The translations under genes were made by a program, and so were the position numbers. Under the pieces are notes generated by a model. It was not told the DNA's origin. It did no database searches and saw only the letters and a list, made by a program, of their open reading frames with translations. From positions 1 to 43,373 of the forward strand of contig JASEGN010000002.1 of assembly GCA_030018055.1 (NCBI GenBank): 43,373 nt of DNA, read 5' to 3'. Positions 5,522 through 37,270 of the stretch are shown here, in pieces (the first letter of the stretch is position 1; every line of letters begins with the position of its first letter). Source of the stretch: Candidatus Aenigmatarchaeota archaeon. GTDB lineage: Archaea > Aenigmatarchaeota > Aenigmatarchaeia > CG10238-14 > SCSR01.

Positions 5522-6205
5522 ATGGAATATAATAGGTTAGAACTTTCGAGAGAGGATTTATTAAAAACTAATTTTATATTTTTCTACAAACATGAAGAAC
5601 TATGTGCTACTCCAGCTGGAAGGGAGCTATTCTCAGATGTGAGAGAAGCTATAGAGAAGGGATATTTTATACGTCCAGGGAATGTTTGGATTCGTGTGGA
5701 TAATGTAGAAGATAGGAAAATTGAAGGTGAAATAATGATGCGTTTTGTATATCCAAAAGAATCTTATGTACTCAAGAAAAAAGTTAAAAAAAGTTGGAAG
5801 CTTCATCTAACTCCTTTGACAAGGGAACTTAGATTAGGACTTAACACTGGATACGAGCTTCTTTTCTGTGAGGAAGTTGAAAAGCTCCCCTATGAGTTCA
5901 TGGCATTTGATCCAAAGTCTTATGGATCGGAAATGATAAAACATCCTAGCTTGAAGGACTACCCACTAGGACCAAGAAGTAAATTGGTACTATTTGTAAC
6001 TCCAGAACCACCAGGATACTTTCAGTTTGCATCCACAATGCCAGAGTGGGAGAACGAAATTTGTAATTATATTTCTAAGGCATGTGCCGTTAACCAGATT
6101 TTAATACCAGACCGTTGGGTACTTTTACGTATTTGGTCTGAAAAAGCGATGCTTACACAGGGAAGTGTGTTTGGTCTAATCGGAGAACTTTATACTGAAC
6201 TATAG
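5522..6205 (+). CDS. hypothetical protein
   Basis: 227-aa ORF, divergent from the 4205..5458 gene. No recognisable motifs. Confidence 0.5.
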   Translation: MEYNRLELSREDLLKTNFIFFYKHEELCATPAGRELFSDVREAIEKGYFIRPGNVWIRVDNVEDRKIEGEIMMRFVYPKESYVLKKKVKKSWKLHLTPLTRELRLGLNTGYELLFCEEVEKLPYEFMAFDPKSYGSEMIKHPSLKDYPLGPRSKLVLFVTPEPPGYFQFASTMPEWENEICNYISKACAVNQILIPDRWVLLRIWSEKAMLTQGSVFGLIGELYTEL

Positions 6206-7749: not shown

Positions 7750-8601
7750 ATGATAAGTAAATTCAGGGCAATTGAAAATATGGATGTTAAGGAACTTGGA
7801 AGATGCGGTGTGAAAGTGCCCGCAATTGGAATGGGTACATGGGGAATTGGTGGGTATACTACAAGAGATACTACTCATGATAAGGAGGCTATAGTAGCCT
7901 TGAGAAAAGGTATTGAGCTAGGGTTGTATTTAATTGATACTGCTGAAATGTATGGTAATGGGCATTGTGAAGAAATTGTTGGTGAAGCCATTAAACCATT
8001 TCCTAGAGAACAAGTTTTCATAGTTTCAAAAGTTTTACCAGAGCATCTATGTTACAATGATGTTATCAAAGCTGCTAGAGGAAGCTTAAAAAGACTTAAG
8101 ACAAATTTTATCGACCTGTACTTAATCCATTCCCCAAATTCTAGAGTACCACTTAAAGAAACTATGGGAGCTATGGAAAAATTGGTTGGAGATGGTTTAG
8201 TTAGGTTTATTGGCGTTAGCAATTTCGATGTTACTGAAATGGAAGAAGCTAGAAATTATCTTTCTACGAATGACATTGTTGTTAACCAGGTTGAATACAG
8301 TTTGCTTGAGAGAAGTATAGAAAGGGATGTGCTACCCTATTGTATTAAGAATCAGATTACGGTAATGGCCTATACACCATTAGCAAAGGGTGAATTGGCA
8401 AGGAATAAATTTCTTCGAGAAATTGGTGAGAAATATGGAAAAAATCCAGCCCAAGTAGCACTTAACTGGTTAATTTCAAAGGAGAATGTTATAGCTATAC
8501 CAAAAGCTATTAACTTGCGTCACGTAGAGGAGAATGTTGGTGCGATGGGATGGAGATTATCAAAAAGTGATGTAGAGAGCATATCATCTTACTTCAAGTA
8601 A
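7750..8601 (+). CDS. aldo/keto reductase
   Basis: 283-aa ORF with AKR-family motifs GMGTWGIGG, IDTAEMYGNG and LYLIHSP. Confidence 0.85.
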   Translation: MISKFRAIENMDVKELGRCGVKVPAIGMGTWGIGGYTTRDTTHDKEAIVALRKGIELGLYLIDTAEMYGNGHCEEIVGEAIKPFPREQVFIVSKVLPEHLCYNDVIKAARGSLKRLKTNFIDLYLIHSPNSRVPLKETMGAMEKLVGDGLVRFIGVSNFDVTEMEEARNYLSTNDIVVNQVEYSLLERSIERDVLPYCIKNQITVMAYTPLAKGELARNKFLREIGEKYGKNPAQVALNWLISKENVIAIPKAINLRHVEENVGAMGWRLSKSDVESISSYFK

Positions 8602-13648: not shown

Positions 13649-14059
13649 TCACCTTATAACCAAATCTTTAATACCAAAGTTCCTTTTAAATATCTTTTTT
13701 AATAAATTTAAATTTTTCCTTTCCCTACCAATTACAATACCCCTATGTTTTTTATCAACCCAAACCTCCAATTTATCGCCCATTAAATCTATTCTATTTG
13801 CTTGTGGAATAACCCCTCTGGTAAATACGGTGATATCTGGAGAGAATTCAAATAACTTTATGTTCTTTTTTACAATTTTCTCTACAGTTTTTATATTTTT
13901 TCCATTTTTCCCTATAGCAATGCCAAGTTTGCCCTCCTCAACTATCATATAAATTGTGTTACCGCCCTCATCAATTATACAATCTTTAATTAAACTTCCT
14001 GTGAAGCTTTCAAAGAGTGTTATGAGTTTAATTGCTTCTTCATCAAATTTTACGTCCAT
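13649..14059 (-). CDS. nusA: archaeal NusA-like KH-domain transcription factor
   Basis: 136-aa ORF with two KH-like GxxG motifs (IGKNGKNI, IGRERKNL). It holds the conserved position between eL30 and uS12. Confidence 0.8.
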   Translation of the reverse strand: MDVKFDEEAIKLITLFESFTGSLIKDCIIDEGGNTIYMIVEEGKLGIAIGKNGKNIKTVEKIVKKNIKLFEFSPDITVFTRGVIPQANRIDLMGDKLEVWVDKKHRGIVIGRERKNLNLLKKIFKRNFGIKDLVIR

Positions 14060-14060
14060 G

Positions 14061-14324
14061 CTACTCTTCTATAACCAGAGTTGATATGGGGAATGGTTTA
14101 CCGCAGGTAACTCCTAATTCCTTGCTAGTTCCTTTAAAAATCTCCACCTTTAAATTAAAAATTTTCGCATTATGCTCAATTTGTTTACGCATAGGTTCTG
14201 GAATATTTTCTGCTATAACAATAAATTTTGGTTTACCACTTTTTATAAACTTAATCGATTGCTTGTACCCAAAGGTGATTTTATTTGACTTAATTGCATC
14301 AAGGATAATTTCTGTTAAACTCAT
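14061..14324 (-). CDS. rpl30e: 50S ribosomal protein eL30
   Basis: 87-aa ORF of the L7Ae/L30e fold type, in the conserved position after rpoA''. Confidence 0.75.
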   Translation of the reverse strand: MSLTEIILDAIKSNKITFGYKQSIKFIKSGKPKFIVIAENIPEPMRKQIEHNAKIFNLKVEIFKGTSKELGVTCGKPFPISTLVIEE

Positions 14325-36147: not shown

Positions 36148-36216
36148 ATACTTTACTCGTAAGAAGAATTTTATAATGAAATTTAAAATTAAAAAACAAT
36201 TTTCTAATTATTAATA

Positions 36217-36316
36217 ACTCAAGGTCTGAAAAAAAGATGATGTATATAAATACTTAAGATTAATAGTACAAACAAATTGCCGGGTAAAAAGACTCAAGGT
36301 CTGATAAGAATGATGA
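36217..36316 (+). ncRNA. two tandem C/D-box-like modules (guide-CUGA-spacer-AUGAUG[U/A]) upstream of tRNA-Ser
   Basis: The perfect 13-mer ACTCAAGGTCTGA occurs at 36217-36229 and 36292-36304. Each copy is followed after 7 or 5 nt by ATGATGT (36237-43) or ATGATGA (36310-16). The guide is complementary to the tRNA-Ser anticodon loop. The full sRNA architecture is unresolved. Confidence 0.35.
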
Positions 36317-36331
36317 ATAAACTGCCGGGAT

Positions 36332-36345
36332 TATTTATGACCGAT
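36332..36345 (+). other. tRNA-Ser intron 1 (14 nt, acceptor/D junction)
   Basis: Outer helix CUGC/GCAG (4 bp, using 2 leader nt). Central helix CGG(G)/(A)CCG (3 bp plus G-A). Bulges are AUU and AUG. Cutting after the 2nd bulge nucleotide yields GCCGGGAU|GGCAG. Confidence 0.55.
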
Positions 36346-36375
36346 GGCAGAATCAGGTAATGCGCCAGCCTTGAG

Positions 36376-36386
36376 TTCAAAAGGAA
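36376..36386 (+). other. tRNA-Ser intron 2 (11 nt, canonical 37/38 position)
   Basis: The anticodon stem (5 bp) serves as the outer helix. The central helix is CUU(G)/(A)AGG (3 bp including G-U, plus G-A). Bulges are AGU and AAA. Removal gives the 7-nt loop CUUGAGA. Confidence 0.6.
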
Positions 36387-36436
36387 AGCTGGTGTCCCTT
36401 TGGGACGTCTGGGTTCAAATCCCAGTCCCGGCGTCC

Positions 36437-37270
36437 TTACTCAAGTTTTGATCTTACATTTTGAGATGGTTTGATAACTACCTTATCGTAACCTTTAACA
36501 TCTAAAACTCGAGAAGCATTCCCTTGATTCACCGAAACTTCAAGAAAGTCGCTGCCCCCAATTATGGCAAGTGGCGTGTTTAGAGGAGCTTCACCATAGG
36601 CTGAACAGAGTCTCAAAGTCAAATCCCTATCTTTCAATTTAAGAATAAGATTTTTCCCTTCTTCTATTCCAATTTCTCTGAGGTCCCTCAAGCTAATGTT
36701 TGTGATTATGTTGCCAAAATTATCTATGTGAATGACCTCACCCTGTATTTCTTCTTTTCGAATTTTTGGTTTTGTGAAGCTGGGAATTACAGGGTCTTGT
36801 ATCTTTGGGCCAAAATTGGATGGAAGAGCTCCTTTAGCTAAATATGCCGCAACAGGACTGAAGATGTCACGTCCGTGGAAAGTCCTCGAAACATCTTTGA
36901 GCATGTATTTTGGGTTAGTGATTTCGTAGATGTGGTTTATTCCTTCCCTTTGTGCTGAAAGTATCAAAAGCCCATTATCCGGCCCAACGTAAAAGCTACG
37001 TTTCGTCTCGACTATCATTGGCCTTCTTTTCGCTCCAACCCCAGGGTCTACCACCGCAACATGGATTGTTCCCTTCGGAAAGTACAGTGCTGCTTGAGCA
37101 AGAATAAAGGCTCCAAGTCGCACATCGAATTTTGTTATCTCATGATTTATATCAACAATCGTTGCTTTTGGGTATATAGAAAGTATTACTGCCTTCATCT
37201 CAGCTACATAAGGGTCCTTTAGACCAAAATCTGAGAGTAATGTAATAATAGATGATTTACGCATTCTCAT
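36437..37270 (-). CDS. SAM hydroxide adenosyltransferase / SAM hydrolase family (DUF62)
   Basis: 277-aa ORF. ..ITLLSDFGLKDPYVAEMKAVI.. and ..VAVVDPGVG.. are typical of DUF62. Confidence 0.8.
   Translation of the reverse strand: MRMRKSSIITLLSDFGLKDPYVAEMKAVILSIYPKATIVDINHEITKFDVRLGAFILAQAALYFPKGTIHVAVVDPGVGAKRRPMIVETKRSFYVGPDNGLLILSAQREGINHIYEITNPKYMLKDVSRTFHGRDIFSPVAAYLAKGALPSNFGPKIQDPVIPSFTKPKIRKEEIQGEVIHIDNFGNIITNISLRDLREIGIEEGKNLILKLKDRDLTLRLCSAYGEAPLNTPLAIIGGSDFLEVSVNQGNASRVLDVKGYDKVVIKPSQNVRSKLE

Follow-up and report, generated by a model that had tools for sequence, protein, structure and literature searches.

A conserved one-motif C/D-type module in the 5′ leader of archaeal tRNA-Ser(UGA) and its proposed role in wobble uridine methylation

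We examined a stretch of 43,373 nucleotides (nt) from a Candidatus Aenigmatarchaeota archaeon, referred to here as the window (contig C48 of a 966-kb metagenome-assembled genome, or MAG, of 125 contigs and 34% G+C, labelled G000), and describe two short modules that stand immediately upstream of its two-intron tRNA-Ser(UGA) gene. The modules lie at 36216-36243 and 36291-36316 on the forward strand, and each consists of a guide (A/G-ACUCAAGGU) followed by CUGA, a loop and AUGAUG(U/A). The upstream module is a real, conserved element, and we are highly confident that its guide pairs functionally with the anticodon region of the adjacent tRNA. From sequence and its comparison across genomes, we consider it probable that the module acts in cis as a minimal C/D-type guide for 2′-O-methylation of the wobble uridine (Um34) of tRNA-Ser(UGA).

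Results

The comparison started from a DNA search of 40 relatives in which the matches cover the tRNA plus the upstream stretch. It identified a single module just upstream of tRNA-Ser(UGA) at 28 related loci, distributed over 27 DPANN genomes, at least 18 genera and four families, and every related tRNA-Ser(UGA) locus examined had one. In these relatives the layout is a guide of about 10 nt, CUGA, 2-8 nt, (G)AUGA(U/A/G)GA and a spacer of about 0-20 nt before position +1 of tRNA-Ser(UGA). Across the aligned modules the second (C′-type) box reads AUGAUGA, AUGAAGA or AUGAGGA and CUGA never varies; one genome (G004) has a variant module with CAGA and AUGAAGA. A strict pattern was matched in 17 of the 118 genomes of the order (reversed control, 0) and a looser one in 39 of the 371 genomes of the class (reversed control, about 4), counts that are lower bounds because the patterns miss variants and MAGs often come without the tRNA loci. 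By family, matches to the looser pattern were present in 23/69 (f1), 2/3 (f2), 1/1 (f3), 1/1 (f6), 0/23 (f4) and 0/19 (f5) genomes. In this genome and in relatives alike, the examined genes for Ser(CGA), Ser(GGA) and Ser(GCU) lack such a leader module.

A sequence-only reading of the window had described a repeated 13-mer followed by C-box-like words, with complementarity to the anticodon loop of the tRNA downstream, and this description proved accurate. The window contains exactly two perfect copies of the 13-mer ACTCAAGGTCTGA (36217-36229 and 36292-36304), offset by 75 nt, and the rest of the 966-kb assembly holds no further copy; ATGATGT (36237-36243) lies 7 nt past the first copy and ATGATGA (36310-36316) 5 nt past the second. 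Guide 1 (AACUCAAGGU, 36216-36225) is antisense to the pre-tRNA from G30 to the second intron base (36368-36377) and forms nine Watson-Crick pairs plus one G-U, and guide 2 (GACUCAAGGU, 36291-36300) forms eight plus two. The duplex energies are -14.2 and -14.8 kcal/mol, respectively, compared with a median of -3.1 and a first percentile of -8.9 kcal/mol for random 26-mers of the window. RNAfold of 36210-36436 likewise picks the pairing of guide 1 with the anticodon, a result that is weak alone (z = -1.9). The fifth guide base 5′ of CUGA falls opposite U34 (36372), the predicted 2′-O-methylation site, so that the earlier assignment of this base by the +5 rule is arithmetically correct. When up to two mismatches are allowed, the 13-mer has three matches against 1.03 expected, a value equalled by 14 of 100 shuffles and alone not significant; we dismiss chance not on this test but because of the exact duplication, its position and the conservation with covariation in relatives.

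This covariation was assessed by comparing, for each of the 28 modules, the 14 nt 5′ of CUGA with the tRNA from nt 30 on, and by counting 12 proposed pairs on a gap-free alignment. In all, 87.8% of the cells are paired, and the covariation score of 0.201 was reached by none of 500 shuffles (0.124 ± 0.015), whereas slid registers scored 0.09 at most. The anticodon loop is an invariant core, and the covariation information therefore comes from its flanks. Guide position 9 and the first base after G37 (intron base 1) are found as AU in 18 cases, GC in 4, UA in 3 and GU in 2; position 10 and the second base after G37 (intron base 2) as GC in 18, AU in 4 and GU in 2; and position 2 and nt 31 as GC in 25 and CG in 3. 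In the two genomes that lack a 37/38 intron (G015 and G029), the guide tracks A38-C39-C40 instead. Both the reach of the pairing from G30 into the intron and its register on U34, as first proposed, are thus upheld across the 28 related loci, in which the guide-target pair is kept through compensatory changes and position 5 forms an A-U pair with U34 in 28 of 28 modules. Guide positions 2-10, of which 2, 9 and 10 covary, are each paired in at least 86% of sequences; pairing at position 1 is weak and mostly G-U, and it declines at positions 11-12. This profile is close to that of solved C/D ribonucleoprotein particles (RNPs), in which spacer nt 1 and 12 are unpaired and nt 2-11 form a duplex of 10 base pairs (bp) (PMC9670817).

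The genome encodes the expected machinery, namely fibrillarin (257 bits), Nop5 (198 bits), L7Ae (101 bits) and RNase P RNA (97.9 bits). Fibrillarin is present in 115 of the 118 genomes of the order; this is consistent with the model but does not separate module-bearing from module-free genomes. The CUGA, 5-7 nt and AUGAUGA/U of the window fit a kink-loop (K-loop), and the proposal that they form a D′(CUGA)-loop-C′(UGAUGA) K-loop gains support from the 28 related loci with covariation together with these C/D protein genes. A second L7Ae-family match (PF01248, 61 bits) was seen on the reverse strand of the window at 14055-14312; it contains one in-frame TAG and may point to a further member of the L7Ae/L30e family, to a mini-intron or to an error in the sequence.

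The pre-tRNA-Ser(UGA) spans 36324-36433, with exons at 36324-36331, 36346-36375 and 36387-36433 and introns at 36332-36345 and 36376-36386. The Rfam tRNA model matches 36343-36427 (30.5 bits). ARAGORN missed the unspliced gene because of its two introns, and folded the 85-nt tRNA-Ser(UGA) once 36332-36345 and 36376-36386 had been cut out by hand. The 11-nt anticodon intron contains neither boxes nor a nested small RNA (sRNA), and the guide sits in the 5′ leader instead. On the same strand, the guide precedes its target by 52 nt in module 2 and by 125 nt in module 1, and the intervening DNA contains no oligo-T run. We infer that leader and tRNA are co-transcribed, which would put the guide and its nt-34 target on a single precursor; such a cis linkage, envisaged in the sequence-only reading, is supported by the covariation across the 28 related loci.

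TATA-like hexamers peak 37-38 nt before CUGA (15 of 28 modules), in upstream DNA that is otherwise A/T-rich. This peak and the usual archaeal spacing suggest that transcription starts at or near the 5′ end of the guide. In the window, a putative promoter P1 (TTTAAAA, 36182-36188) starts 44 nt before CUGA, so that the predicted transcript would begin a few nt before guide 1, and a putative promoter P2 (TATATAAATA, 36243-36252) would initiate near 36274-36279. Downstream of the gene, the trailer right after the discriminator base (36434-36438) reads UCCUU, as it also does in several unrelated genera (G015, G089, G091, G103, G062 and G099), and may serve as a signal for processing or termination. 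The 13-mer has a third match, with two mismatches (ACTCAAGTTTTGA), at 36439-36451, 6 nt past the discriminator base; it overlaps the stop-codon end of a convergent open reading frame (36437-37270, reverse strand) and may be due to chance.

The single module is the conserved unit, and the tandem pair is peculiar to this genome. Module 1 has its D′-type box (CUGA) at 36226-36229, a 7-nt loop (AAAAAAG) at 36230-36236 and its C′-type box (AUGAUGU) at 36237-36243. In module 2, CUGA (36301-36304) is followed by a 5-nt loop of differing sequence (UAAGA, 36305-36309) and by AUGAUGA (36310-36316), which a 7-nt spacer (36317-36323) separates from tRNA +1. The two copies are identical solely in guide and boxes (13 + 6 nt), and their flanks match at 5/20 and 7/20 positions. 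When gaps are allowed, their alignment gives a hint of an older duplication that spanned about 75 nt. Since identity is limited to guide and boxes, both modules look to be under selection.

A copy of the acceptor 5′ strand was also observed in the leader (GCCGGG, 36279-36284, with a U before it as at the real +1, that is U-GCCGGG at 36278-36284). It ends 6 nt before guide 2, and copies of this kind lie 13-18 nt before the D′ box. They are perfect or near-perfect to their own genome's acceptor at 8 of 30 loci (G000, G004, G067, G069, G015, G008, G089 and G090), and the copy is decayed in G091a. Two roles were considered for it and rejected. A kink-turn (K-turn) between the copy, CCGAGGN, and the acceptor strand proper, CCGA, fails as a general reading: G069 and the window read CCGGG and lack the GA, the spacing from C′ to such a 'D' would be only about 2-12 nt, and the copy decays inside one genus (G091a). 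As to a true 5′ exon of a large module-bearing intron, positions 7-8 misfit (U7 opposite U66, no U8), and three genomes (G008, G089 and G090) carry the copy without any 8/9 intron. It seems most likely that the copy is a vestige of the acquisition of the module or of an 8/9 intron.

Three further pre-tRNAs of the genome, those for Leu(CAA), Leu(UAA) and Lys(UUU), carry similar modules in their introns, each module with a guide and one box pair that place position 5 on nt 34. Other tRNAs were located with a T-arm-anchored scan, ARAGORN in intron mode having given many unreliable calls on the genome, and all four hand-spliced tRNAs (Ser-UGA and these three) fold correctly in ARAGORN. Leu(CAA) has CUGA-UUCA-AUGAUGU (contig C39, about 6008) with 6 bp, and position 5 meets C34; Leu(UAA) has CUGA-GUAAAAA-AUGAAGA (C39, about 8214) with 9-10 bp that involve intron bases on both sides, and Lys(UUU) has UUGA-UUUCAG-AUGAGAG (C96, about 1087) with about 10 bp, position 5 meeting U34 in both. 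In these intron-borne modules the pairing of anticodon and intron also belongs to the splice-site structure, whereas the leader module has no such alternative reason to pair. In Pyrococcus, guides for position 34 are known for Leu(CAA), Leu(UAA), Met and Trp (PMC7994747), and Um34-type wobble bases occur in other archaeal tRNAs (PMC7668247).

The three intron-bearing genes show further features of their own. The tRNA-Leu(CAA) gene (C39, about 5947-6125; L091) has four short introns, with the module in the 30/31 intron, and an acceptor-strand near-copy upstream (GCAGGGT...GCAGGGGT); before splicing, this gene is not recognized by the Rfam tRNA model. Two introns flank the anticodon loop in tRNA-Leu(UAA) (C39, about 8146-8292), in which guide AUAUCUUAAGCA and the boxes end the 3′ intron. 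The module of tRNA-Lys(UUU) (C96, about 1027-1155) is in the 37/38 intron and has degenerate boxes in which A6/U1 keeps the closing pair, and this gene has a further intron near position 7/8.

Larger elements were noted in tRNA-Ser introns of relatives. Six of them, L035 (G007), L034 (G023), L033 (G031), L036 (G026), L017 (G034) and L047 (G021), have a complete C/D sRNA nested in the 37/38 intron of tRNA-Ser(UGA). Its boxes, C = AUGA(U/G)AA and D = U(U/C)GA, are unusual in that they covary to give A6-U1 in place of G6-C1. The D guide of these sRNAs, GGAGGUGA, is complementary to UCACCUCC, which we take to be the 3′ end of 16S rRNA, and a search of five genomes for a conserved site complementary to their D′ guide, GGCUUGACU, yielded none. 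Full C/D-like sRNAs were also seen in tRNA-Ser(CGA) and tRNA-Ser(GGA) introns of other genera and families (L025 in G010, L028 in G037 and L030 in G030), for example C-GCCCUGAGGUAU-CUGA-ACU-AUGAUGA-..., the D′ guide of which, (C)CUGAGGUAU, is common to two families.

Discussion

We propose that L7Ae would bind the K-loop formed by CUGA with AUGAUGA/U and bring in Nop5-fibrillarin, while the guide would pair within the same transcript with the anticodon loop and the start of the intron, possibly during tRNA synthesis. Fibrillarin would then methylate the 2′-OH of the wobble base U34, opposite guide position 5, after which RNase P would cut off the leader and the splicing endonuclease would take out the two introns. 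Since removal of leader and intron destroys the pairing, the mark would be laid on the precursor only.

Several points weigh against a methylation guide of this kind. The two-motif architecture that defines C/D RNAs is absent, and the relatives carry one motif only. Neither in the window nor in relatives is there a C box about 12 nt upstream of CUGA or a D box about 12 nt downstream of C′; the C′ box lies about 0-20 nt from tRNA +1, so that neither a D guide nor a D box is conserved. A one-motif 'hemi' RNP assayed in vitro is active but loses site specificity, for which both motifs are needed (PMC1635284). Among archaeal wobble modifications, Um34 of tRNA-Ser(UGA) is not reported in PMC7668247. 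Apart from tRNA, no Rfam family reached its gathering score, the best snoRNA-like match being SNORD43 (E = 4.6). Finally, the predicted transcription starts rest on A/T-rich motifs within A/T-rich DNA, and CUGA, which never varies, gives no covariation signal for the K-loop.

The loss of specificity in vitro also speaks for a different function, that of an L7Ae-binding antisense element that serves folding or processing without methylation. By keeping the 5′ splice site and the anticodon loop in a duplex, it would set the order of splicing, cleavage by RNase P or other modifications of the anticodon loop, or slow them down. Indeed, the precursor-specific pairing includes the 5′ splice junction, with G37 and the first bases of the intron; several relatives have the K-loop only a few nt away from the RNase P site; and one-motif RNPs behave as non-specific methyltransferases in vitro (PMC1635284). 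However, a pure chaperone needs no CUGA that places position 5 on nt 34 in all 28 modules, and the same register recurs in the three intron-borne modules of other tRNAs. Such a device would also leave unexplained why complementarity does not extend beyond the positions that fibrillarin RNPs use (PMC9670817) and why G015 and G029 retain the guide despite having no 37/38 intron. We therefore regard it as unlikely.

Another view is that RNase P frees the leader (about 110 nt here when counted from P1, about 30 nt in relatives) as a small guide that acts in trans on other pre-tRNA-Ser molecules or on another RNA. There is a precedent in the guide of the pre-tRNA-Trp intron, first thought to act in cis and later reported as trans-acting or intramolecular (PMC7994747), and two freed half-guides could fill one Nop5 dimer. 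Yet we found no other conserved target, complementary 8-9-mers in the genome occurring at about chance frequency and in coding-like contexts, and the guide tracks the intron and exon bases of its own tRNA. Action in trans, which is a variant of the methylation guide with the same function, is thus rather improbable to our minds.

The module might further be part of a canonical full-length C/D sRNA whose terminal boxes have been overlooked, and box-like words do exist at suitable coordinates. The sequence-only reading had named two such arrangements, neither of which survived comparison. An sRNA of 68 nt with C = AUGAUGU (36237-36243) and D = CUGA (36301-36304) needs two modules and is therefore not the conserved unit, as relatives have one; it also lacks an internal D′/C′ pair, for 36244-36300 contains no UGAUGA and no CUGA, and these 57 nt link the two K-loops in place of the spacers of about 12 nt seen in C/D sRNAs. 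The alternative C box, AUAAUGA (36173-36179), exists as a word but is 46 nt from CUGA, is not conserved and overlaps an A/T-rich promoter-like stretch, so that it is probably upstream of the transcription start. Across loci, no box is conserved 12 nt upstream of CUGA, the TATA-like peak at -38/-37 puts the predicted start at or near the 5′ end of the guide, and regular-expression scans of the genome for full C-D′-C′-D arrangements returned noise only. A full-length sRNA is accordingly very improbable. Least credible of all is a chance repeat or a decaying, functionless duplication remnant: although A/T-rich intergenic DNA is repetitive and the shuffle test with up to two mismatches is not significant alone, identity between the copies is limited to guide and boxes, and the suggestion of a remnant of the anticodon arm is excluded by a repeat that is antisense to the arm rather than a copy of it and is kept across at least four families with compensatory changes.

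If the leader module is a methylation guide, as we consider probable, the question arises whether it belongs to a wider class. Natural one-motif C/D RNPs could constitute a DPANN system in which modules in leaders and introns methylate their own wobble base (U34 or C34) in cis, the tether replacing the second kink motif; in the present genome the duplicated Ser leader would offer a Nop5 dimer two K-loops with identical guides. We put this forward tentatively, as an idea with slightly less than an even chance of being right. That the two tandem K-loops may jointly serve one Nop5 dimer and so imitate the two-motif architecture is speculative, and is raised because one-motif RNPs are active but non-specific in vitro (PMC1635284).

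Guided methylation by C/D RNPs has been described as needing a two-motif, pseudo-symmetric guide RNA. If our proposal is true, the minimal functional C/D unit is smaller than assumed, and the leader module provides a natural test case for site specificity, setting tethering against the bipartite ruler. In ultrasmall archaea, tRNA maturation would likewise include a further step, wobble methylation ahead of RNase P cleavage and splicing. The proposal is also relevant to the question of why DPANN pre-tRNAs retain leaders and many mini-introns, some of which may carry guide modules. Given that Rfam has no match, standard C/D finders probably miss these modules, and guide sets in these lineages may be under-counted.

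Comparison with known systems

Two sets of C/D motifs have been called the defining feature of C/D sRNAs (PMC9670817), and our literature searches returned no description of the present leader-guide layout, nor of a conserved natural one-motif guide. Engineered hemi C/D RNPs and guides free of C/D motifs support fibrillarin activity in vitro (PMC1635284; PMC9670817), and the bipartite architecture helps mainly when binding of the guide or the substrate is weak (PMC9670817). The engineered hemi-RNPs resemble the leader module in having one kink motif and one guide, but they are laboratory constructs in which site specificity is lost (PMC1635284).

The guide in the euryarchaeal pre-tRNA-Trp intron (Haloferax volcanii; Pyrococcus sR50) directs 2′-O-methylation of C34 (Cm34) and U39 (Um39) (PMC7994747). 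It shares with the leader module, as proposed here, a position within its own precursor, nt 34 as a target, action before processing and the use of L7Ae, Nop5 and fibrillarin. In contrast to the leader module, it is located in an intron, has full C/D and C′/D′ motifs with two guides and is freed by splicing; the leader module occupies the 5′ leader, has a single D′/C′ pair and one guide, is predicted to be released by RNase P and is directed to U34 of Ser(UGA). The sR-tMet RNA of Haloferax volcanii reportedly guides Cm34 of the intron-containing elongator pre-tRNA-Met through a pairing that spans exon and intron. The likeness consists in a precursor-only substrate and a target at nt 34, although sR-tMet is a full-length C/D sRNA that has its own gene and acts in trans.

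Dicistronic precursors of a tRNA and a C/D sRNA are known from Nanoarchaeum equitans, Ignicoccus and Thermoproteus (PMC3491384; PMC7994747). According to the passages of these papers that deal with them, the guide shares its transcript with a tRNA, and an enzyme of tRNA end processing releases it, as we infer for the leader module. In the same passages, the dicistrons have a complete sRNA downstream of the tRNA, the 5′ end of which is made by RNase Z, and it is not described there as targeting the adjacent tRNA. Set against that account, the leader module is a half-sized guide that stands upstream, where RNase P would act, and that targets its own tRNA.

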